10,603 nt of DNA from a virus (lineage: Duplodnaviria; Heunggongvirae; Uroviricota; Caudoviricetes): the IMG/VR virus record IMGVR_UViG_2711768062_000001. One strand, 5' to 3'. The notes under the pieces are model-generated. The model had not been told where the DNA came from. It did not search any database and saw only the letters and a list, made by a program, of their open reading frames with translations. Both the position numbers and the translations under genes were made by a program. Of this stretch, positions 1 through 10,603 are shown in pieces (position 1 is the first letter of the stretch; every line of letters begins with the position of its first letter).

Positions 1-231
1 CAGCTGGCGTTTGAGACGTGCAATCTCGGTAGACATCTCCAGTTCACGTTCAGAAGACGTCTGCTGATTTTGCTGTTTACTGCGCCAGTTGTAGAGCTGT
101 GATTCATACAGGCTGAGTTCACGGGCTGCGGCAGTAACACCGATGCGTTCAGCAAGCTTCAGGGCTTCACTGCGAAATTCAGGCGAATGCTGTTTACGGG
201 GTTTTTTACTGGTTGATACTGTTTTTGTCAT
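1..231 (-). CDS. insE: IS3 transposase OrfA (InsE), N-terminal 77 codons; the 3' part and OrfB lie outside the window
   Basis: Minus-strand ATG at 231..229 opens MTKTVSTSKKPRKQHSPEFRSEALKLAERIGVTAAARELSLYESQLYNWRSKQQNQQTSSERELEMSTEIARLKRQL..., matching my recollection of IS3 InsE (HTH N-terminal domain). The frame is open to the window edge. Confidence 0.8.
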   Translation of the reverse strand, partial: MTKTVSTSKKPRKQHSPEFRSEALKLAERIGVTAAARELSLYESQLYNWRSKQQNQQTSSERELEMSTEIARLKRQL

Positions 232-296
232 GTGAGTCACCTCTGACTGAGAGTTTACTCACTTAGCCGCGTGTCCACTATTGCTGGGTAAGATCA
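1..296 (-). mobile_element. IS3 (IS3 family) left end, partial; the element continues beyond the window start
   Basis: Reverse complement of 241-296 reads TGATCTTACCCAGCAATAGTGGACACGCGGCTAAGTGAGTAAACTCTCAGTCAGAG, which I recognise as the IS3 terminal inverted repeat and leader, followed by the OrfA start. Sequence character changes abruptly at 297 (AT-rich prophage DNA). Only one end is visible, so the target-site duplication cannot be checked. Confidence 0.85.
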
Positions 297-438
297 TTTC
301 TCTACCTGCCGTTGGTGTTCGTGCCCGAGGCAGATAGCCTCAAGCACCCGCAGTCATTCTACTTAACTAAGATTTCCCCGCAAACCGTTTTTGTCCAGCA
401 CAGTAAATATCCAACTAAACCAATGGAGTTCGCTGTAT

Positions 439-618
439 TTACCGCCAGTATTCAATGCACATGACCGCCATGAACACCCCTAAAAAAAGGGCATTTATAT
501 ATCCAAATATTAATATCAAAACATCAACTTTTTCCATATACCTTGCTGTGAAGATGATGGGCATACATGATGCGAACAACCAGAACGCAACAAACAAAAA
601 CTGCAATGCGTTTTTCAT
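439..618 (-). CDS. small hydrophobic protein, 59 aa, two predicted transmembrane helices, unknown function
   Basis: MKNALQFLFVAFWLFASCMPIIFTARYMEKVDVLILIFGYINALFLGVFMAVMCIEYWR. Minus-strand GGAGG lies 7 nt upstream of the ATG at 618 (gattgtaGGAGGaataATG), so the internal ATG is preferred over the 72-aa start at 657 given in the ORF track. TAA stop at 441..439. Confidence 0.45.
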   Translation of the reverse strand: MKNALQFLFVAFWLFASCMPIIFTARYMEKVDVLILIFGYINALFLGVFMAVMCIEYWR

Positions 619-1052
619 TATTCCTCCTACAATCAATGTGCAATTACATTTAAACACACCTCAATTTGGCCGGACATATAAATATCTAAACCAGAAAAAA
701 TCACTTACATAGCGTTACAAACTCTTTAGTCTAAAGGTTCATCGTAAAACATTCCCCATACTTATCAGTCCGTTCCGCGCCAGGTAGCTCATTGCCTTAT
801 CTGGCAACCTGTAATCAGGTTTCCGCTTTTTCAGTTGGCTGGTCGTTTAACCGACATAGTTAACCCATTAATCTAGTTGCCGGATGTTGGTGGATTTTCG
901 CGTTTTAGTTGTTCATAAAAGTGCACAGCTTTAACCAATTCTTCTGATGTAACCGGGACTGGTGAGGCAGTGAATAAGGCCTGAATTTGATAGTTCGGCC
1001 TGTCGTTACAATCCTCTTTTTTCGGTACATATTTCCAGTCACCAGACCACTA

Positions 1053-1160
1053 CTTCCCCTGAAAGTCCGTAACGCCTTTTTTCACGTAGCGATATCGCCA
1101 TGTCACTGGTTTTGCTTGCCCCGCCGTTTCATGCCCTTCCTGATAATTAATCTCGCTCAT
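1053..1160 (-). CDS. micro-ORF, 35 aa hydrophilic (MSEINYQEGHETAGQAKPVTWRYRYVKKGVTDFQGK), hypothetical
   Basis: ATG at 1160..1158 preceded by a G-rich SD-like run (gaGTGGGGcgatgaATG); TAG stop at 1055..1053. Below the ORF-track size threshold; no homology recognised. Confidence 0.2.
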
Positions 1161-1397
1161 TCATCGCCCCACTCATCACAATATGCTTCGACCGGAGTTT
1201 TTCCCGCTTCATAGTCATCACGCTAGGATTCGACATCAGCAGCACTTCCACCGCGTAACTCACCATAGTCCATTAATAGTTCATCCCGCTCTTCAAAACT
1301 GATGTTATATTTAGCTGAACAAAAATCAGCCACTTTGTTCTTCCTCATCGTCTTTTATTTCGTGGTATGAGTAATTGCAGTAGTTAAAGAAAATTTC

Positions 1398-1508
1398 TTA
1401 TGCTCCGTCATGAATTTCATCAGGTGTTGCGTCATCGTCCACTTCGAATACATCCTCAAAATCTCCACCAGCTATTCCCGTTTCAATAATAATTTTGAAC
1501 TTTCGCAT
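1398..1508 (-). CDS. micro-ORF, 36 aa acidic (MRKFKIIIETGIAGGDFEDVFEVDDDATPDEIHDGA), hypothetical
   Basis: ATG at 1508..1506; on the minus strand an AGGAGG is followed by a GC hairpin (ccgccc-gaaa-gggcgg, plus-strand 1516-1531) and then the ATG, a geometry that could bring SD and start codon together. TAA stop at 1400..1398. Confidence 0.2.
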   Translation of the reverse strand: MRKFKIIIETGIAGGDFEDVFEVDDDATPDEIHDGA

Positions 1509-1770
1509 TTCACTACCGCCCTTTCGGGCGGCCTCCTGATGTTCTGAGGGTGCAGAAATCCATCCGGTTAAGGATTAAGTTTTATTTACAGAACTGAATT
1601 TAATTATTCAGATATACGTATCTGTAACCTTACGAATCTACTCACTGGATGCCTCTTTCATAAAAATAATCCAGTGGGTTTTATCGTTTTTTCCCTGTTC
1701 GTTGACAGATAACAGGCTTTCTATCTGTCAGTGCCAGAATCTGGCTTACCGGTATTTGCGTTTCATTCCA

Positions 1771-2127
1771 TTAAAAAATCAGAACGCCGTGCGGCCTCAA
1801 CACCCGAAAAGCTTCTTTAAATCTCTGTCGCAAATCATCACGCCAGGCATCTTTATTCAGCCGTCCATATTTCTTTCCCATCCAGGCGTTATCACCAACA
1901 CGCTCAAGATGCGGAGGGTCTAATACAACCATCGAAAAAGATGCGTCTGCAAATGATAATGCACGAAAATCTGCGATAATGTCAGGGCTGATAATCAAGC
2001 GTCTCCCATTGCGTAATGTGTATCCTTCTTTTCTGATATCGCTAAATATCGCCCGTTCGTCAGACTTATCGAACCAGAACATGCGGCTGCCACAGCACAT
2101 ATCAAGAATGGTTGCCGGTGCACTCAC
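1771..2127 (-). CDS. DNA methyltransferase-like protein, 118 aa, probably truncated by an in-frame TAA (see findings)
   Basis: Translation has an AdoMet-binding-like N-terminus (ILDMCCGSRMFWFD) and a (D/N/S)PP(Y/F/H)-type motif IV (VVLDPPHL) about 60 residues later, the order seen in amino-MTases. Start ATG overlaps the stop of the upstream 140-aa gene (ATGA at 2124-2127), implying translational coupling. Confidence 0.5.
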   Translation of the reverse strand: MSAPATILDMCCGSRMFWFDKSDERAIFSDIRKEGYTLRNGRRLIISPDIIADFRALSFADASFSMVVLDPPHLERVGDNAWMGKKYGRLNKDAWRDDLRQRFKEAFRVLRPHGVLIF

Positions 2128-2546
2128 TGCGCCACGTCCTGAAAATTACCCTGATAGAAAGCCAGTATGCGCTGCATAACTTCGCTCTTCCGGCACTCGC
2201 GACAGATTATGTTTAGGCGACTGTCGTAGCGACGTATTTCTCCGTCAGGTGATGACCAGATAAGGTCCGGATCAACCACAGCAGGTTTCTTCACCTTTGC
2301 CCTCGAGAGTTTTTTGCGGGCGTTTTGCCAGTCCTTACGCGCCTGTTCAGAGGGGAATAACCCGTAGCCGGAGTTGTATACATCGCCACTGGCTACCAGC
2401 TCTCTGGCAAGAACGCTCATCAGATATCTAGTCGCACCTGTTTTAGCTTCCAGTTGCCGTAACGTCTCACGGCCGCTCTGGCGCACGAGTTCCACCACCT
2501 GCCATTTAATTTTTTCCCGCTCTTCTTGTGTAAAAACTTTTGCCAC
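2124..2546 (-). CDS. hypothetical protein, 140 aa, basic, with a possible winged-helix-like segment
   Basis: Long open frame with a GTG start at 2546..2544 preceded by aaGGGGGActt; protein MAKVFTQEEREKIKWQVVELVRQSGRETLRQLEAKTGATRYLMSVLARELVASGDVYN.... No family recognised. Sits between the replication initiator and the MTase-like gene in the same operon. Confidence 0.55.
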   Translation of the reverse strand: MAKVFTQEEREKIKWQVVELVRQSGRETLRQLEAKTGATRYLMSVLARELVASGDVYNSGYGLFPSEQARKDWQNARKKLSRAKVKKPAVVDPDLIWSSPDGEIRRYDSRLNIICRECRKSEVMQRILAFYQGNFQDVAQ

Positions 2547-2586
2547 AAGTCCCCCTTAAAATTACCTCATGACCTGAAATCAACAC

Positions 2587-3552
2587 TTATCCTCTGAAAC
2601 CAGGCGGAATTTCTGTATCCGGTTCAGAAATATGATTAACACAACGCTGTACAGGTGAACGTCCCAGGCGGATGACCAGTTCGTCCCATTTTTCGCGGAG
2701 CTTTGACGGGCTCATGATGTTTTTTACCCAGAATGGATCTCGCTGAATCCGACCAAACATTTCGCAAATTTGTCTGTGGCTTCTGCCATCCAGCATCCGC
2801 ATTGTGCGCACGTCATTGGCCCAGGCAGTCCAGTTAGGCTCTTTTGGTCGCATGATCTCGCCATCATCACTGGCTGCCTGTTCGTAGAGACCCACGATCC
2901 GCCCCCAGATCCACTGCGCACACGCCAAATCCTCCCTGCTACCCCACTGGCGTTTTTTCGCACTAAACACAACCGCGTCGGAGTTCCGGGTTAAAAAATC
3001 CTGTTCAGTCGTCTGCGGGTCCGGTTGCGAAGCTTCCGGACGAAAAGTGTTTTTATTCTCTGTAGTAATCTCTGTTGTATTCTCTGTAAGATCATCAGGC
3101 CATTTTGACCCGATGACATTGGGTCGTTTTGAATCAATGGAGCGTTTCATTTTGACCTCTTCCATCGTGTCATTTTGACCTGATGGAGCGGCGCATTTTG
3201 AACCGATGGATTCGCTCAATTTGCCACCATCTAAAAGCTCGCTCCCATAGTTGATCGTGTAGAAATTGGTCATATCGCGCTTTGATTTATTGAGCTTTTC
3301 ACAACGCAAAAGCCCCAGCGTTTTCAGACTTGCAAACGCGCGCTTTAACGTTGACTCTGACCAGAATGGGAACTGTTCCAGCCATTGTTCCGTTGTGTTA
3401 TAAATCCAGCGAACACCATCACATTCCATGCCGGAGTTGGTATCTCTCAACCAGTAGTGCAGTTGTTGCAAAACAATGGCTTCGTTTAAGCCAATTTTCA
3501 TTGCCAGCTGCGTGTTTATAACCAGTGGGCGTTCAGCAAAAAGAAGGCTCAT
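2587..3552 (-). CDS. phage replication initiator (lambda O-like, two domains with low-complexity linker) containing the putative origin iterons
   Basis: Long ORF; ATG at 3552..3550 preferred (the track's 339-aa form starts at TTG 3606). N-terminal domain ...LVINTQLAMKIGLNEAIVLQQLHYWL...STLKRAFASLKTLGLLRCEKL, then a T/E/N/Q-rich linker, then a Trp-rich C-terminal domain. The linker-coding DNA holds an iteron array (3101-3230), as in the lambda O gene and ori-lambda. Confidence 0.6.
   Translation of the reverse strand: MSLLFAERPLVINTQLAMKIGLNEAIVLQQLHYWLRDTNSGMECDGVRWIYNTTEQWLEQFPFWSESTLKRAFASLKTLGLLRCEKLNKSKRDMTNFYTINYGSELLDGGKLSESIGSKCAAPSGQNDTMEEVKMKRSIDSKRPNVIGSKWPDDLTENTTEITTENKNTFRPEASQPDPQTTEQDFLTRNSDAVVFSAKKRQWGSREDLACAQWIWGRIVGLYEQAASDDGEIMRPKEPNWTAWANDVRTMRMLDGRSHRQICEMFGRIQRDPFWVKNIMSPSKLREKWDELVIRLGRSPVQRCVNHISEPDTEIPPGFRG
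3101..3230. repeat. origin-like iteron array: 5-6 direct repeats of core CATTTTGACC at about 23-bp period
   Basis: Copies start at 3101 (cattttgacc), 3125 (cgttttgaatc, degenerate), 3148 (cattttgacc), 3171 (cattttgacc), 3194 (cattttgaac) and 3218 (caatttgcca, weak). Flanked at 3057-3089 by three TCTCTGT copies at 12-bp period and a short AT-rich patch at 3040-3056. Confidence 0.6.
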
Positions 3553-4054
3553 AATTCCATCCAGCTTTTTGTTGGTATTGCTGTCGATACGCAAGCTTGA
3601 AAGCAATTGCTTTTTCTATAAGTTCGTCAGTTTCACGATCCACTACGGCAGGATCAGCAAAAAGCAGTCCGGACTCCACCACATCGCCATATTCTTTGTT
3701 TAACCCGGCGATCATGCACGTGATGCTTTTTCCGTCAGTAATTTCACGATACAACCTGAAATCACTAATCCGGATAGCCTCCATAATCGCAGGCACTAGC
3801 GCCGTGAACTTTTCACGCTTATCCCTGGTGTCGATAGCCTTCCAGCGTTCGAATATCTTCACTCGATTAACACCAAGCGCTCGCTGATCAACCGCGCCAC
3901 CTTCATCTGTGACACGCTGAACATCGATGTTCGGGCGCTCTTTCAAAGCCCAGAATGCTTCAGTGATTAATATCGTCGCCTGCTCCTGTGTCATTCCTGG
4001 TCGACATATCCAGGCATCCAGAGCCTCACGAGCCTGTTCAGGAGTGATTTTCAT
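3533..4054 (-). CDS. hypothetical early protein, 173 aa, immediately downstream of the cro-like gene (the position occupied by CII/YdaT-type regulators)
   Basis: ATG at 4054..4052 lies 17 nt inside the 3' end of dicC (aacaATGaaaatcactcctgaa), suggesting coupling; protein MKITPEQAREALDAWICRPGMTQEQATILITEAFWALKERPNID.... Function is inferred from position only. Confidence 0.55.
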   Translation of the reverse strand: MKITPEQAREALDAWICRPGMTQEQATILITEAFWALKERPNIDVQRVTDEGGAVDQRALGVNRVKIFERWKAIDTRDKREKFTALVPAIMEAIRISDFRLYREITDGKSITCMIAGLNKEYGDVVESGLLFADPAVVDRETDELIEKAIAFKLAYRQQYQQKAGWNYEPSFC

Positions 4055-4265
4055 TGTTCAACCGCCCCGCCCGCTTCGTCTTACGATATTCATCATAAAC
4101 TTTGGGATCATACTGAAGCTCCCCGCCAGATGCCTCCTGTAGACGCATCGCGCGACCTTCAGGAACCAGTATCCCCCAAGCAGCAACACTTGCCAGCCTC
4201 ACTCCTGCGGCATTGGCAAGCTTTGTTTTGCTGCCAAAAAAAGTAATTGCGTCAACTTTAAGCAT
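4038..4265 (-). CDS. dicC: DicC, Cro-like small DNA-binding protein (75 aa from the ATG; 76 with the preceding TTG)
   Basis: MLKVDAITFFGSKTKLANAAGVRLASVAAWGILVPEGRAMRLQEASGGELQYDPKVYDEYRKTKRAGRLNNENHS. Divergent from dicA across an 80-bp operator region; SD GAGGGGG 5 nt upstream of the ATG. Size and sequence match my recollection of Qin DicC. Confidence 0.7.
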   Translation of the reverse strand: MLKVDAITFFGSKTKLANAAGVRLASVAAWGILVPEGRAMRLQEASGGELQYDPKVYDEYRKTKRAGRLNNENHS

Positions 4266-4278
4266 CAAATCCCCCTCT

Positions 4279-4296
4279 TGTTAGACTTTTCTAACA
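4279..4296. promoter_or_regulatory. operator: perfect inverted repeat TGTTAGA-cttt-TCTAACA in the dicC/dicA intergenic region
   Basis: Read directly from the sequence: 7-bp arms, 4-bp spacer. Overlaps the -10 and predicted start site of the dicC promoter. A degenerate second copy (aattaga-atta-cctaact) lies at 4328-4345, abutting the dicA start codon. Confidence 0.6.
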
Positions 4297-4323
4297 TTAT
4301 TGTGCGCGGGATACCTAAGTCAA
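4296..4323 (-). promoter_or_regulatory. candidate sigma70 promoter for dicC (-35 TTGACT, 16-bp spacer, -10 AATAAT on the minus strand)
   Basis: On the minus strand, TTGACT is at plus coordinates 4323..4318 and AATAAT at 4301..4296. The predicted start falls inside the 4279-4296 operator. Confidence 0.4.
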
Positions 4324-4345
4324 GAAAAATTAGAATTACCTAACT

Positions 4346-4753
4346 ATGGATACAAGAACCCTGGGCCAGCGAGTTCTGGCGCGACGAAAAGAATTACGCT
4401 TAACACAACGAGAAGCCGCGCGCCTCGCTGGAGTTGCTCACGTCACAATTTCACAATGGGAAAGAGACGAAACCCAGCCAGTCGGAAAACGATTGTTTGC
4501 TTTAGCGGATGCTCTGAAGTGCTCACCTACATGGCTAATGTTTGGTGACGAAGACAAGGCACCAGTGCCTGCACAAGAACTTCATGTGGAAACAGAGCTA
4601 ACTCCCAACCACAAAGAATTGATCGAATTATTCGATGCTCTTCCATCTTCCGAGCAGGAAGCCTTGCTGTCTGAAATGCGCGCAAGAGTAGAAAACTTCA
4701 ACAAACTCTTCGAAGAAATGCTTAAAGCGCGTAAAAATAAATCAATAAAATAA
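4346..4753 (+). CDS. dicA: DicA, HTH (XRE/cI-type) repressor of the dicB operon, 135 aa
   Basis: MDTRTLGQRVLARRKELRLTQREAARLAGVAHVTISQWERDETQPVGKRLFALADALKCSPTWLMFGDEDK..., i.e. an N-terminal HTH followed by a C-terminal helical domain. Length, sequence character and context (divergent dicC, dicB operon downstream) match Qin DicA as I recall it. Confidence 0.8.
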   Translation: MDTRTLGQRVLARRKELRLTQREAARLAGVAHVTISQWERDETQPVGKRLFALADALKCSPTWLMFGDEDKAPVPAQELHVETELTPNHKELIELFDALPSSEQEALLSEMRARVENFNKLFEEMLKARKNKSIK

Positions 4754-4788
4754 CATTCTTTTCAAGTGATTAGTTGCGCCCACCCTTT

Positions 4789-4808
4789 TTGTTAGATCAA
4801 TCTAACAA
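4789..4808. promoter_or_regulatory. operator: perfect inverted repeat TTGTTAGA-tcaa-TCTAACAA upstream of the dicB operon
   Basis: 8-bp arms, 4-bp spacer, with the same half-site as the 4279-4296 operator. A degenerate third copy (tgttagg-ttat-tctaaat) at 4826-4843 overlaps the candidate promoter. Confidence 0.6.
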
Positions 4809-4815
4809 AAAACAC

Positions 4816-4844
4816 TTGCCTCTCATGTTAGGTTATTCTAAATT
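4816..4844 (+). promoter_or_regulatory. candidate promoter of the dicB operon (-35 TTGCCT, 17-bp spacer, -10 TAAATT)
   Basis: Weak match to the sigma70 consensus, flanked and overlapped by DicA-type operator copies; the first gene of the operon starts at 4922. Confidence 0.3.
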
Positions 4845-4921
4845 ATTTTCCATCAAGACACCGCACGGTGTTCTCAGCAAACAGTTCCGCTACCCCGGCG
4901 TTAAGGGGAAATGAGGTCAGC

Positions 4922-5077
4922 ATGGATACTATCGATCTTGGCAACAACGAATCTCTGGTGTACGGCGTGTTTCCAAACCAGGACGGCACGTTCACCGCAA
5001 TGACGTATACCAAAAGCAAAACGTTTAAAACCGAATCTGGAGCGCGTCGCTGGCTGGAAAGAAATTCAGGTGGGTGA
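4922..5077 (+). CDS. ydfA: YdfA-like small protein, 51 aa
   Basis: MDTIDLGNNESLVYGVFPNQDGTFTAMTYTKSKTFKTESGARRWLERNSGG; GAGG 6 nt upstream of the ATG. The internal start is preferred over the 69-aa form in the ORF track. First gene of the dicB operon, same length as K-12 ydfA. Confidence 0.7.
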   Translation: MDTIDLGNNESLVYGVFPNQDGTFTAMTYTKSKTFKTESGARRWLERNSGG

Positions 5078-5078
5078 T

Positions 5079-5207
5079 ATGGATTTCGACACAATCATGG
5101 AAAAGGCTTACGAAGAATACTTCGAAGGCCTTGCCGAAGGCGAAGAAGCTCTCAGCTTCAGCGAATTTAAACAGGCGCTTTCCAGTTCGGCAAAATCTAA
5201 CGGCTGA
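5079..5207 (+). CDS. ydfB: YdfB-like small acidic protein, 42 aa
   Basis: ATG at 5079, one nucleotide after the ydfA stop (tGAtATGg); MDFDTIMEKAYEEYFEGLAEGEEALSFSEFKQALSSSAKSNG. Below the ORF-track threshold. Same length and operon position as K-12 ydfB. Confidence 0.65.
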   Translation: MDFDTIMEKAYEEYFEGLAEGEEALSFSEFKQALSSSAKSNG

Positions 5208-5236
5208 TAAGCGAAACAGCACCGCAAGGAATCAGT

Positions 5237-5455
5237 ATGCAGAAACGAGAACCCGTTATCATCGCGCCAGACTATACCGATGATGAACTTTATGAGTGGA
5301 TGCACCAGAAAATTAATGCAGCGCAGGATCTGAAATGGGCTAATGAAGCCAGGGCTAAGCAGGCTGAAAATCTGTTCTCTCTGGAGCAGGATATCACCAA
5401 TCTGGAAAAAGCAGCGGCATTAAGCATTGCCAGAATGATTACATACCCGCGTTAA
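5237..5455 (+). CDS. ydfC: YdfC-like protein, 72 aa
   Basis: MQKREPVIIAPDYTDDELYEWMHQKINAAQDLKWANEARAKQAENLFSLEQDITNLEKAAALSIARMITYPR; SD-like aaggaa upstream. Same length and position as K-12 ydfC. Confidence 0.7.
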   Translation: MQKREPVIIAPDYTDDELYEWMHQKINAAQDLKWANEARAKQAENLFSLEQDITNLEKAAALSIARMITYPR

Positions 5456-5795
5456 TAGCTAACCAACGAAGCTAAGGTTGGTAATTAAGGAGTTCTCCAC
5501 GGGTGAGGTGGAGTGCGTGCGCCGGACACGGGTGAGCATCCGGCACTGACAGTTTACTGAAAGGATATTTCCCTGAAAAGTCAGACCATAACGCGAAAGC
5601 GCACGGCGAGGTAGCTGGTTCATAGATAGCCTGTCGTTAAATTTTCGTCGACCGTGCGCTTCCGGTTGTGGCAACCCGCGAAATGGCGCGGCGGTAAGTA
5701 TGGCGGGGTTATTCCTTCCCCGTTGAGGACACCGGGTTGTCAGGTTGACCATACGCTTAAGTGACAACCCCGCTGCAACGCCCTCTGTTATCAAT

Positions 5796-5853
5796 TTTCT
5801 GGTGACGTTTGGCGGTATCAGTTTTACTCCGTGACTGCTCTGCCGCCCTTTTT
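5796..5853 (+). ncRNA. dicF: DicF small RNA (Hfq-dependent sRNA that represses ftsZ translation), processed from the dicB operon transcript
   Basis: tttctggtgacgtttggcggtatcagttttactccgtgactgctctgccgccctttttaa matches the DicF sequence as I remember it, including the GGCGG...CCGCC stem and U-tract. It lies between ydfC and dicB, after a 340-nt untranslated spacer. Confidence 0.75.
5811..5853 (+). terminator. intrinsic terminator forming the 3' end of DicF (leaky; dicB and ydfD lie downstream)
   Basis: GC stem (ggcgg ... ccgcc) followed by CTTTTT at 5848-5853. Confidence 0.5.
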
Positions 5854-6022
5854 AAAGTGAATTTTGTGATGTGGTGAATGCGGCTGAGCGCACGCGGAAC
5901 AGTTAAAACCAAAAACAGTGTTATGGGTGGATTCTCTGTATCCGGCGTTAATTGTTAACTGGTTAACGTCACCTGGAGGCACCAGGCACCGCATCACAAA
6001 ACTCATTGTTGAGGGCGAGATA

Positions 6023-6211
6023 ATGAAAACGTTATTACCAAACGTTAATACGTCTGAAGGTTGTTTTGAAATTGGTGTCACTATCAGTAACCCTGTATTT
6101 ACTGAAGATGCCATTAACAAGAGAAAACAAGAACGGGAGCTATTAAATAAAATATGCATTGTTTCAATGCTGGCTCGTTTACGTCTGATGCCAAAAGGAT
6201 GTGCACAATGA
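6023..6211 (+). CDS. dicB: DicB, cell-division inhibitor (acts through MinC), 62 aa
   Basis: MKTLLPNVNTSEGCFEIGVTISNPVFTEDAINKRKQERELLNKICIVSMLARLRLMPKGCAQ; GAGGG 7 nt upstream of the ATG. The internal start is preferred over the 97-aa form in the track. Matches DicB as I recall it. Confidence 0.8.
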   Translation: MKTLLPNVNTSEGCFEIGVTISNPVFTEDAINKRKQERELLNKICIVSMLARLRLMPKGCAQ

Positions 6212-6399
6212 ATTCAGCATTTGCGCTTGTTCTGACAGTTTTTCTTGTTTCCGGAGTGCCAGTTGATATTGCAGTCAGTGTTCACAGGACAATGCAGGAG
6301 TGTATGACTGCAGCAACCGAACAGAAAATTCCCGGTAACTGTTACCCGGTCGATAAAGTTATTCACCAGGATAATATCGAAATCCCGGCAGGTCTTTAA
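6208..6399 (+). CDS. ydfD: YdfD, small membrane-anchored protein (reported to be lytic when overexpressed), 63 aa
   Basis: ATG overlaps the dicB stop (ATGA at 6208-6211); MNSAFALVLTVFLVSGVPVDIAVSVHRTMQECMTAATEQKIPGNCYPVDKVIHQDNIEIPAGL with an N-terminal hydrophobic helix. Length and position match K-12 ydfD. Confidence 0.7.
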   Translation: MNSAFALVLTVFLVSGVPVDIAVSVHRTMQECMTAATEQKIPGNCYPVDKVIHQDNIEIPAGL

Positions 6400-6492
6400 A
6401 ACAGTTCCGTAATAAATATCCGGTTTCATTCTTATATGCCAGCAATGGCAGGGATTTGTTCATCCTTAAATCTGTCATGAGGTTAAAACAAA

Positions 6493-8964
6493 ATGAGTAA
6501 AGTCTTTATTTGCGCCGCTATTCCTGACGAACTGGCAACAAGGGAAGAAGGCGCTGTGGCTGTAGCCACAGCCATTGAAGCTGGCGACGAACGCCGTGCT
6601 CGAGCAAAATTTCACTGGCAATTCCTGGAACATTATCCGGCTGCTCAGGACTGCGCTTATAAATTTATTGTCTGCGAGGATAAACCTGGTATACCCCGCC
6701 CTGCCCTCGATTCATGGGATGCTGAATATATGCAGGAAAACCGCTGGGATGAGGAGTCTGCTTCTTTTGTCCCGGTTGAGACTGAATCCGATCCGATGAA
6801 CGTCACTTTTGACAAGCTGGCCCCTGAAGTACAGAACGCTGTCATGGTTAAGTTCGACACATGTGAAAACATCACCGTTGATATGGTTATTAGCGCACAG
6901 GAATTGTTGCAGGAAGACATGGCAACATTCAACGGACATATCGTTGAAGCGTTGATGAAAATGCCAGAAGTTAACGCCATGTATCCGGAGCTTAAGTTGC
7001 ACGCCATTGGGTGGGTTAAGCATAAATGTATTCCTGGTGCTAAATGGCCCGAAATTCAGGCAGAGATGCGCATCTGGAAAAAACGTCGCGAAGGTGGACG
7101 CAAGGAAACCGGAAAATACACGTCTGTTGTTGATCTCGCCCGCGCCAGAGCCAATCAACAGTACACTGAAAATTCAACAGGAAAAATCAGCCCGGTCATT
7201 GCTGCCATTCATCGCGAATACAAGCAGACATGGAAAACACTGGATGACGAACTGGCCTACGCTCTCTGGCCTGGTGATGTGGATGCCGGAAACATTGACG
7301 GCAGCATCCATCGCTGGGCAAAAAATGAAGTTATCGACAACGACCGCGAAGACTGGAAGCGTATCTCGGCATCAATACGCAAACAGCCTGATGCCCTTCG
7401 CTACGACCGCCAAACTATTTTTGGCCTTGTCCGTGAGCGTCCGATCGACATTCACAAAGATCCCGTAGCACTGAACAAATATATCTGCGAATACCTGACG
7501 ACAAAGGGCGTGTTTGAGAATGAAGAAACAGACCTGGGCACTGTTGATGTTCTCAAGTCATCAGAAACACAAACTGATGCAGTGGAAACTGAGGTATCTG
7601 ATATCCCAAAAAATGAAACCGCACCGGAAGCTGAACCATCTGTAGAGCGTGAGGGGCCGTTCTATTTCCTCTTCGCAGATAAGGACGGAGAAAAATACGG
7701 TCGCGCAAACAAACTTTCTGGTCTGGATAAGGCACTGGCTGCTGGCGCCACTGAAATCACAAAAGAAGAATATTTTGCCCGAAAAAATGGCACATACACG
7801 GGCTTACCGCAAAATGTAGATACCGCTGAAGATTCAGAACAACCAGAGCCGATAAAAGTTACCGCTGACGAAGTAAACAAAATTATGCAGGCAGCCAATA
7901 TCAGCCAGCCTGACGCCGATAAGTTGCTTGCTGCATCACGTGGTGAATTTGTTGAAGGGATTAGTGACCCGAATGATCCGAAATGGGTTAAGGGGATCCA
8001 GACCCGCGATTCTGTGAACCAGAACCAGCATGAATCGGAACGGAACTACCAAAAAGCGGAACAAAACAGCCCAAATGCGTTACAAAACGAGCCAGAAACG
8101 AAACAGCCTGAATCAGTGGCGCAACAGGAAGTGGAAAAAGTCTGCACCGCCTGCGGTCAGACCGGCGGCGGCAACTGCCCTGATTGTGGCGCGGTGATGG
8201 GCGACGCAACATACCAAGAAACATTCGATGAAGAGTATCAGGTTGAAGTTCAGGAAGATGATCCGGAGGAAATGGAAGGCGCTGAACATCCACACAAGGA
8301 GAACGCTGGCGGCAATCAGCATCACGATAGCGATAATGAAACTGGCGAGACGGCAGATCACTCAATTAAGGTGAACGGTCATCACGAAATCACATCCACC
8401 AGCAGGACGTGTGACCATCTAATGATCGACCTTGAAACCATGGGAAAAAATCCTGATGCCCCGATCATCTCAATAGGTGCAATATTTTTCGATCCGCAAA
8501 CCGGAGATATGGGACCGGAATTTAGTAAGACTATCGATCTGGAAACTGCTGGCGGAGTCATTGATCGGGACACCATTAAATGGTGGCTTAAGCAATCACG
8601 CGAAGCGCAATCGGCCATTATGACCGATGAAATCCCGTTAGATGATGCACTGTTACAATTGCGGGAATTTATCGACGAAAACTCCGGTGAATTTTTTGTT
8701 CAGGTTTGGGGAAATGGAGCCAACTTCGACAACACGATTTTGCGCCGTTCATACGAACGGCAGGGGATCCCCTGCCCGTGGCGTTACTACAACGATCGCG
8801 ATGTACGCACAATCGTTGAGCTGGGGAAAGCCATAGACTTCGATGCCAGAACGGCTATTCCATTCGAAGGTGAGCGCCATAATGCACTTGATGACGCCCG
8901 TTACCAGGCAAAATACGTTTCAGTTATCTGGCAAAAACTGATCCCGAGTCAGGCTGATTCTTAA
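6493..8964 (+). CDS. ydfE: YdfE, full-length form (823 aa): N-terminal domain of unknown function, acidic low-complexity linker with a C4 zinc ribbon, C-terminal DEDDh 3'-5' exonuclease domain
   Basis: Uninterrupted 2472-nt ORF with GAGG upstream. The N-terminus MSKVFICAAIPDELATREEGAVAVATAIEAGDERRARAKFHWQFLEHYPAAQD matches my recollection of the K-12 YdfE fragment. C-terminal motifs MIDLETMG (Exo I), WGNGANFD (Exo II) and ERHNALDDARYQA (Exo III, His variant); zinc ribbon CTACGQTGGGNCPDCG at about 8143-8200. Confidence 0.8.
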   Translation: MSKVFICAAIPDELATREEGAVAVATAIEAGDERRARAKFHWQFLEHYPAAQDCAYKFIVCEDKPGIPRPALDSWDAEYMQENRWDEESASFVPVETESDPMNVTFDKLAPEVQNAVMVKFDTCENITVDMVISAQELLQEDMATFNGHIVEALMKMPEVNAMYPELKLHAIGWVKHKCIPGAKWPEIQAEMRIWKKRREGGRKETGKYTSVVDLARARANQQYTENSTGKISPVIAAIHREYKQTWKTLDDELAYALWPGDVDAGNIDGSIHRWAKNEVIDNDREDWKRISASIRKQPDALRYDRQTIFGLVRERPIDIHKDPVALNKYICEYLTTKGVFENEETDLGTVDVLKSSETQTDAVETEVSDIPKNETAPEAEPSVEREGPFYFLFADKDGEKYGRANKLSGLDKALAAGATEITKEEYFARKNGTYTGLPQNVDTAEDSEQPEPIKVTADEVNKIMQAANISQPDADKLLAASRGEFVEGISDPNDPKWVKGIQTRDSVNQNQHESERNYQKAEQNSPNALQNEPETKQPESVAQQEVEKVCTACGQTGGGNCPDCGAVMGDATYQETFDEEYQVEVQEDDPEEMEGAEHPHKENAGGNQHHDSDNETGETADHSIKVNGHHEITSTSRTCDHLMIDLETMGKNPDAPIISIGAIFFDPQTGDMGPEFSKTIDLETAGGVIDRDTIKWWLKQSREAQSAIMTDEIPLDDALLQLREFIDENSGEFFVQVWGNGANFDNTILRRSYERQGIPCPWRYYNDRDVRTIVELGKAIDFDARTAIPFEGERHNALDDARYQAKYVSVIWQKLIPSQADS

Positions 8965-9036
8965 TGTTCAACTGTCGCCGGTTGTGACTGGTATTCTGCA
9001 ACCGGCGCTCGTCTGATGTAAGAGATAAAGAAATCG

Positions 9037-9288
9037 ATGAGCGAAGTAATCATGATTGTCTCTCCCGGCAAATGGGTATCCGAAGAGCAGTTAATTGCGC
9101 TGAAAGGAATAAAAAAAGGTACGTTAAAAAAGGCCCGGGAAAAATCGTTTATGGAAGGAAGGGAATATAAGCATGTCGCTCATGACGGTATGCCATGGGA
9201 TAACAGTCCATGCTTTTACAACCTGGAAGAAATTGATCGCTGGATTGAGCGCCAGGCATCAGCAAGACCAAGACGTCATCTTACTTGA
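9037..9288 (+). CDS. excisionase-like protein (Xis family), 83 aa
   Basis: Small basic protein directly upstream of the integrase; contains ...EGREYKHV..., reminiscent of the DGREYLFHE segment of lambda Xis. The true start may be the internal ATG (IMIVSP). Confidence 0.6.
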   Translation: MSEVIMIVSPGKWVSEEQLIALKGIKKGTLKKAREKSFMEGREYKHVAHDGMPWDNSPCFYNLEEIDRWIERQASARPRRHLT

Positions 9289-9322
9289 CTAAAAGCCACA
9301 CTAACTAATGAGAGAAGTTGAA

Positions 9323-10603
9323 ATGAAATATCCGACAGGCGTGGAAAACCATGGAGGGAAATTACGTATCTGGTTTGTTTATAAAGGCGTAAGAGTCAGG
9401 GAAAACCTGGGGGTTCCTGACACAGCAAAAAACAGGCGCGTTGCAGGTGAGCTACGCGCCTCTGTTTGTTACGCAATAAAAACTGGTGTTTTCGACTATG
9501 CAAAACAGTTTCCCTCCTCACGCAATCTGGAAAAATTTGGTGAGACTCGACAAGATTTAACCATAAAAGAACTGGCTGAAAAATTTCTGGCACTGAAAGA
9601 AACTGAAGTCGCAAAAACATCACTCAACACATACCGTGCCGTCATCAAAAATATCCTGAGCATAATCGGTGAAAAAAATCTTGCCTCATCGATTAATAAA
9701 GAAAAATTACTGGAGGTTCGTAAAGAGCTACTGACTGGATACCAGATCCCCAAAAGTAACTATATTGTTACACAACCAGGGAGATCGGCTGTAACTGTAA
9801 ATAATTACATGACAAATCTTAACGCCGTGTTCCAGTTTGGTGTTGATAACGGTTACCTGGCAGATAACCCGTTTAAGGGGATCTCGCCATTAAAGGAATC
9901 AAGAACCATTCCGGATCCTCTTTCGCGGGAGGAATTCATCCGTCTTATCGATGCGTGCAGAAATCAGCAAGCCAAAAATTTATGGTGTGTTTCTGTTTAT
10001 ACTGGCGTTCGCCCTGGTGAGCTGTGTGCACTTGGATGGGAGGACATAGATCTGAAAAATGGAACAATGATGATCAGGAGAAATTTAGCAAAAGACCGTT
10101 TCACGGTACCAAAAACACAGGCGGGAACCAATCGGGTCATTCATCTTATTAAGCCAGCAATCGACGCTCTCCGGAGTCAGATGACATTAACGAGACTGAG
10201 CAAAGAGCATATCATTGATGTTCACCTCAGAGAGTATGGCAGAACAGAAAAACATAAATGCACCTTTGTTTTTCAACCTGAAGTGTCAGCGAGAGTAAAA
10301 AATTATGGTGACCATTTTACCGTTGACTCAATAAGGCAGATGTGGGACGCAGCGATAAAACGTGCCGGACTCCGCCATCGAAAATCATATCAGTCGAGAC
10401 ATACTTATGCCTGCTGGTCGCTGACAGCTGGTGCTAATCCGGCATTTATAGCAAACCAGATGGGCCATGCAGATGCGCAAATGGTATTTCAGGTATACGG
10501 AAAATGGATGTCTGAAAACAATAATGCACAGGTAGCTTTGTTAAATACACAGTTAAGCGAGTTTGCCCCAACCATGCCCCATAACGAAGCAATGAAAAAT
10601 TAA
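9323..10603 (+). CDS. tyrosine site-specific integrase (phage integrase family), 426 aa from the preferred ATG (431 aa from 9308)
   Basis: N-terminal arm-binding-like region (KYPTGVENHGGKLRIWFVYKGVRVRENLG) and C-terminal catalytic region with candidate Arg (GVRPGELCAL), His-x-x-Arg (SRHTYACWSL, MGHADAQ) and Tyr (FQVYGKWM) residues. Stop codon at the last three bases of the window. By synteny this is the counterpart of intQ, which is a pseudogene in K-12. Confidence 0.85.
   Translation: MKYPTGVENHGGKLRIWFVYKGVRVRENLGVPDTAKNRRVAGELRASVCYAIKTGVFDYAKQFPSSRNLEKFGETRQDLTIKELAEKFLALKETEVAKTSLNTYRAVIKNILSIIGEKNLASSINKEKLLEVRKELLTGYQIPKSNYIVTQPGRSAVTVNNYMTNLNAVFQFGVDNGYLADNPFKGISPLKESRTIPDPLSREEFIRLIDACRNQQAKNLWCVSVYTGVRPGELCALGWEDIDLKNGTMMIRRNLAKDRFTVPKTQAGTNRVIHLIKPAIDALRSQMTLTRLSKEHIIDVHLREYGRTEKHKCTFVFQPEVSARVKNYGDHFTVDSIRQMWDAAIKRAGLRHRKSYQSRHTYACWSLTAGANPAFIANQMGHADAQMVFQVYGKWMSENNNAQVALLNTQLSEFAPTMPHNEAMKN

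Follow-up and report, generated by a model that had tools for sequence, protein, structure and literature searches.

Why a methyltransferase-like open reading frame (ORF) in viral DNA should stop at a TAA codon when the same frame stays open for 29 further sense codons is the question raised by one locus in a stretch of 10,603 nucleotides, hereafter the window. The ORF is 118 codons long and encodes a DPPH tetrapeptide (Table 1), and in the translation of 2127..1681 the frame beyond its TAA reads WNETQIPVSQILALTDRKPVICQRTGKKR before a further TAA is reached. An earlier note on this DNA had pointed out the ORF, the in-frame TAA, the 29-codon extension and the DPPH motif, all of which we found in place, and had taken the locus for a Dam-like methylase gene recently interrupted by a single nonsense mutation. 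We conclude, with high confidence, that the locus is instead a pseudogene that was inactivated long ago and carries two lesions; it lies in the early-right operon of the Qin prophage and once encoded a small SAM-dependent phage methyltransferase of class I, about 160 aa in length. The start codon of the ORF overlaps the stop codon of the adjoining DUF977 gene in a GTGA arrangement that is typical of translationally coupled phage operons, and intact homologues begin at the same position as the GTG of the window.

Table 1. Features of the methyltransferase locus and its surroundings, in window coordinates
Feature	Position	Strand	Remarks
Whole methyltransferase pseudogene (ancestral 162-codon ORF)	1638..2127	minus	GTG start 2127..2125; ancestral TAG 1640..1638
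118-codon ORF	2127..1771	minus	GTG start; carries DPPH; ends at TAA 1773..1771
GTGA overlap	2127..2124	minus	methyltransferase start codon and DUF977 stop codon (DUF977 gene 2546..2124)
ILDMCCGS, motif-I-like SAM-binding loop	2109..2086	minus	residues 7-14
DPPH, motif-IV-like (D/N/S)PP(Y/F/H) tetrapeptide	1920..1909	minus	residues 70-73
Premature TAA in place of AAA (Lys), codon 119	1773..1771	minus	next base T, giving UAAU; AAA in intact relatives
G3A6 run with one extra base (+1 frameshift)	1695..1687	minus	creates a false 'KR-stop' ending 1683..1681
Hairpin, 8-bp stem CACUGGAU/AUCCAGUG	1676..1643	minus	-17 kcal/mol; z = -4.7 versus shuffles
DUF7167 pseudogene	1326..1508	minus	RefSeq; internal stop
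Hypothetical-protein pseudogene	739..1160	minus	RefSeq; frameshifted, with internal stop
DicF sRNA	5797..5848	plus	Rfam match over the full length at 76.7 bits (gathering score 48); located between ydfC and dicB, its expected place in Qin

Searching phage genomes by tblastn returned 254 records at 60-98% identity, with alignments that cross the stop and reach query residue 146-147. Intact examples include the Stx2c phage allele and the 160-aa product of Klebsiella phage ST846-OXA48phi9.2 (QBP07693.1), which ends ...VLIFKWNETQIPVSQILALTDEKPAIGQRTGKNDKTHWIIFVKGAAV. A search of 5.8 billion proteins recovered more than 7,000 relatives, the best 120 of them mostly 157-170 aa in length, with many others of about 248 aa that carry a C-terminal extension; the closest intact relative among the matches listed was the E. 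coli protein P0001 (162 aa, 88% identical). An exhaustive search of cluster representatives at 50% identity yielded 2,030 clusters, in which matches run to query position about 157-160. Rather than ending near 118 aa, as a natural terminus at this point would require, the intact relatives of 157-170 aa align across the stop, and at the position of the TAA 40 of 40 diverse homologues read a sense codon, AAA (Lys). As codon 119 is invariably AAA in relatives that align well past the stop, the TAA is a nonsense mutation. The core of the earlier reading, a prophage methyltransferase pseudogene inactivated by a nonsense codon, is thereby borne out, as is its expectation that the extension would prove homologous to the C-terminal part of the homologues, seen here both by tblastn and in a DNA alignment.

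The TAA is not the single interruption that had been supposed. In the DNA alignment of the window with intact relatives (A1), the window has TAA against AAA and, at column 436, one extra base, which lies in ACAGGGAAAAAACGAT, within the G3A6 run, where the Klebsiella phage allele reads ACC-GGGAAGAACGAT. The WNET and THW codons are accordingly 92 nt apart in the window, one more than the 91 nt of the intact relatives. The insertion probably lengthened a run of five A residues to six; homopolymer runs of this kind are prone to replication slippage. As a result of this +1 insertion, only the first 27 of the 29 extension codons are ancestral, the frame being shifted thereafter. Repairing the frame by removing one A and changing TAA to AAA produces a 162-aa protein ending ...QRTGKNDKTHWIIFMKEASSE at the TAG of Table 1, which is 88% identical to P0001 over its full length, and homology then continues through residue 161 as against 146-147 in the unrepaired query. 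The gene thus has a frame that is disrupted twice, by TAA versus AAA and by the +1 insertion, and RefSeq labels the locus 'frameshifted; internal stop'.

The earlier note had also placed a hairpin 5 nt past the end of the extension, as a feature downstream of the gene. The hairpin starts 4 nt after the stop at 1683..1681 and lies inside the ancestral coding sequence, at codons about 151-162, as the ancestral gene runs through it to the TAG. Its 5' arm encodes the conserved THWI, and its 3' arm keeps six of the eight pairs in the Stx2c phage allele, pairing that is lost in the Klebsiella phage allele. We rejected this hairpin as a terminator: it is followed by no T-run, was absent from the terminator scan, sits within the ancestral ORF and lacks conservation in the Klebsiella allele.

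Against PHROG 954, a profile named 'DNA methyltransferase', the repaired protein scored E = 9.7e-82, its residues 4-161 aligning with positions 51-205 of the 229 in the profile. Its identity to intact members of this family, the class I SAM-dependent methyltransferases of temperate phages in NCBI terms, which include Klebsiella QBP07693.1, Stx2c alleles and proteins of Pectobacterium phage ZF40 and Gordonia phages, is 60-88%, and it shares with them the layout motif I ... DPPH ... FKW ... THW. Intact members are about 160 aa long with an invariant DPPH and no target-recognition domain, the proteins of about 248 aa forming a subset. Identity within the family is about 60% between enterobacterial phages and phages of the Actinobacteria Gordonia and Corynebacterium. 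A seven-stranded Rossmann-like fold with a SAM-binding loop was found.

These properties identify PHROG 954 as a family of minimal class I SAM-dependent methyltransferases that is not Dam-like, contrary to the earlier assignment. Neither of the Dam families, PF02086 (MethyltransfD12) and PF05869 (phage Dam), was matched in the Pfam scan at E up to 1, which rules out a Dam-like methylase; the matches obtained were a borderline one to Methyltransf_11 (21.5 bits versus a cut-off of 21.2, residues 97-118 only) and a sub-threshold one to N6_N4_Mtase (PF01555; 14.6 bits versus a cut-off of 26.7). The NCBIfam search gave only noise-level matches, far under the cut-offs. Dam-type phage methylases resemble the window family in being phage-borne SAM-dependent enzymes with a DPPx tetrapeptide, but differ from it in size and architecture. 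The best PDB sequence match was the beta-class enzyme 2ZIE (Thermus thermophilus TTHA0409; E = 0.11), over the DPPH region: DPPH together with the next helix and strand aligns with the SPPY/DPPY region of this enzyme (residues 34-96) and of PF01555 (positions 2-59). Beyond this segment the likeness ends, as beta-class proteins of the PF01555 type are about 250-300 aa long, versus about 160 aa here, and run in the order motif IV, target-recognition domain, motif I, whereas in the window family motif I (residues 7-14) precedes DPPH (residues 70-73) and a target-recognition domain is lacking. RNA N2-guanine methyltransferases with (D/N)PP(Y/F) motifs (Trm11, TrmN/Trm14, RsmC) also count among the closest known systems. 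In amino-methyltransferases the (D/N/S)PP(Y/F/H) motif serves methylation of an exocyclic amino group, and by analogy of motif DPPH suggests that the family may methylate such a group. DNA as the substrate of PHROG 954 is an annotation-level name only, and a search of the literature on the family, the DPPH motif, phage PhiR42_1 and WP_001310834 found no characterisation and no substrate test.

Conservation was read from an alignment of 40 sequences spanning 40-89% identity. The residues listed as invariant are D9, C12, D30, R32, P48, D70-P-P-H73, L90, E105, R108, K119, W120 and P138, with K119 and each of D70, P71, P72 and H73 present in 40 of 40 homologues. In the motif-I-like loop, L8 and G13 are nearly invariant beside the invariant D9 and C12, and past the stop T150 and K157 are nearly invariant beside W120 and P138. 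The window retains the invariant residues except three: K119 is the stop, and W120 and P138 lie beyond it. Where intact PHROG 954 members have an open frame, the window copy has a stop and a frameshift, and its conserved F69 and G102 have been replaced; it is a derived, broken member of the family rather than a working one. An AlphaFold2 model of the intact P0001 (pLDDT 93.3, pTM 0.88) has, after residue 118, a helix at 127-131 and strands at 138-144 and 150-156. The 118-aa product therefore does not lack everything downstream of motif IV, as had been stated; it keeps about 45 residues after DPPH and loses the last helix and the last two beta-strands. As part of the central sheet is missing in terms of this model, we infer that the fragment would be inactive.

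The window can be assigned, from its sequence, to the early region of the E. coli lambdoid prophage Qin. Positions 297..10603 are 100% identical to several E. coli chromosomes, such as that of isolate 07-4299, and the 1,201 bases around the gene (1400..2600) are 100% identical to many. Among the Qin landmarks present are int, xis, an exonuclease gene, ydfD, dicB, DicF, ydfCBA and a pair of DicA-like and DicC-like repressor genes, with rspB adjoining. On the minus strand the genes follow in the order YdaT-like, O-like replication gene, DUF977 gene and methyltransferase, the last being flanked by the DUF977 gene on one side and the DUF7167 pseudogene on the other; with a further pseudogene beyond (Table 1), the whole distal end of the methyltransferase operon is decaying. 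The prophage remnant is bordered by an IS junction at about 297, since positions 1..296 have no match in the genomes that are 100% identical from 297 on and are found inside an IS3-family element in strain PK13. At 4177-4672 the sequence departs from that of E. coli IAI1 between flanks of 98-99.7% identity; this is the repressor region, with the DicC-like and DicA-like genes, and the pattern looks like an immunity-region swap between Qin variants. A separately deposited record, Escherichia phage PhiR42_1 (PV340562.1, 48.7 kb, from ECOR13), is a near full-length Qin-like prophage with a complete lambda-like set of head and tail genes; it has the same broken methyltransferase, and an internal transposase.

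Of 5,426 complete E. coli genomes, 473 contain the exact 61-nt context of the TAA, each of them as a single chromosomal copy. With AAA in place of TAA, the 61-mer has no exact match in these 5,426 genomes, its best full-length matches being the TAA carriers at 98.4%. The AAA query also returned 177 records in the band of 99% or higher, which must be partial matches, as no full-length exact match heads the ranking; most likely they come from intact alleles in other prophages, for instance of the Stx2c type, in which the central stretch has the same sequence as the AAA query. The frameshift context of the window is exact in 89 genomes and has one to three differences in 385 more, and the repaired run was never found exactly among the complete E. 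coli genomes searched. As counts in identity bands cannot on their own separate alleles with and without the extra base, five further copies were read base by base alongside the window. This revealed both lesions in all six Qin-type copies (window, IAI1, 07-4299, ATCC 8739, 300709 and PhiR42_1). The six copies fall into two haplotypes, separated by six differences within the gene (two non-synonymous, four synonymous), and both haplotypes carry both lesions, which are therefore older than the split between them. The order and age of the two mutations we infer rather than observe, and neither lesion appears to be recent. With both lesions fixed in the lineage, the TAA in 473 genomes, no exact AAA or repaired run, and both lesions in two diverged haplotypes, the earlier description of a recent mutation and an incipient pseudogene does not hold. 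A 133-aa ENA metagenome protein (P0019), a variant of this allele that corresponds to window 2082..1681, has GAA (Glu) at codon 119 and keeps the +1 frameshift; to judge from this protein, even the stop codon seems to be changing, in the way that drift in a dead gene would predict.

The course of events that we favour can be set out as follows. The AAA codon of the invariant Lys119 has become TAA, and one base has been inserted, independently, into the G3A6 homopolymer run. Translation from the GTG at 2127 would then stop at codon 119, in a UAAU context, and no active enzyme would be made, as the Rossmann fold of the resulting fragment would end before its last helix and the two beta-strands at the C-terminus. 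Conserved positions have changed in the window lineage as well: at the site of F69L all 40 homologues have F or W, at that of G102R 38 have G, and at that of P58S 34 have P. Over 901..3002, 12 of the 13 differences between the two haplotypes fall in the pseudogene stretch 901..2127, which comprises the methyltransferase, the DUF7167 pseudogene and one further pseudogene, leaving one for the DUF977 and O-like genes, which are intact (Fisher p = 0.011), although a recombination boundary could also produce this clustering. Ratios of non-synonymous to synonymous changes were 10:9 on the window branch and 6:11 on the Stx2c phage branch, a difference that is not significant with such small counts (p = 0.34), and between the two haplotypes the ratio within the gene is 2:4; numbers this low do not suffice to demonstrate relaxed selection.

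That the broken allele is kept for a reason, either a function of a SAM-binding 118-aa fragment or rare readthrough combined with a slip on the A6 run that yields traces of full-length enzyme, we consider very improbable. The first of these possibilities holds that selection maintains the N-terminal fragment in, for example, a SAM-binding or regulatory role. The GTGA-coupled start is indeed kept, some genomes annotate the fragment as a CDS, and the 61-nt context of the TAA is identical in 473 genomes; such a fragment, however, would end short of the invariant W120 and P138 and of the final two beta-strands, and it carries F69L and G102R at conserved residues of its own. Haplotype differences are similarly frequent upstream and downstream of the stop (four sites in 354 nt versus two in 135 nt), two of the four upstream changes are non-synonymous, and the intact neighbouring genes are nearly free of haplotype differences. 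A functional fragment is thus highly unlikely.

Programmed recoding, in which low-level readthrough of the TAA at codon 119 would combine with a +1 slip on the A6 run, either ribosomal or transcriptional, to supply small, regulated amounts of full-length protein, is less likely again, and we give it hardly any weight. A +1 shift on AAA-AAA-C before CGA-TAA would regenerate the exact ancestral sequence ...GKNDKTHW..., and both lesions are stably conserved over hundreds of genomes, but vertical inheritance of the prophage remnant as a whole accounts for this conservation. Two independent events of low efficiency would have to coincide. UAAU, the context found here, is the most efficient termination context in E. 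coli according to published work on stop contexts, and a run of six A residues is shorter than those known for appreciable transcriptional slippage. Neither signal is found in any intact relative, all of which have AAA and an in-frame run; P0019, with its Glu codon and retained frameshift, is what drift predicts; and the conserved F69 and G102 have been lost in the lineage as well. A sequencing or assembly error confined to one sequence, for which A6 would be a typical indel site, can be dismissed as next to impossible, since the same TAA is present in hundreds of independently sequenced complete genomes and in a separately deposited phage record, and the same extra base was seen in each of the other five copies that were read base by base. 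The earlier note's ranking of sequencing error and programmed readthrough as unlikely is therefore upheld, and a pseudogene with two old lesions remains the preferred reading.

The decay of this gene is already on record. At 1638..2082 RefSeq/PGAP has a pseudogene entry, 'SAM-dependent methyltransferase; frameshifted; internal stop' (for example ECIAI1_RS08200 in IAI1 and C6W75_RS11095 in 07-4299), and this is the same locus as the window gene, with identical sequence, lesions and position; it is an ordinary decayed gene in a well-known cryptic prophage. In some assemblies, including those of ATCC 8739 and strain 300709, the truncated 118-aa product appears as WP_001310834.1, an ordinary CDS for a 'class I SAM-dependent methyltransferase'. 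These CDS calls are only inconsistent annotation, the identical sequence being called a pseudogene elsewhere, and the listing of WP_001310834.1 as a genuine methyltransferase could mislead surveys of methylomes or defence systems. Among temperate phages the intact family is found very widely; it is apparently uncharacterised, and the question of its substrate concerns the family and not the window locus. It is the intact relatives, such as P0001 and QBP07693.1, rather than the window copy, that are suited to experimental study.
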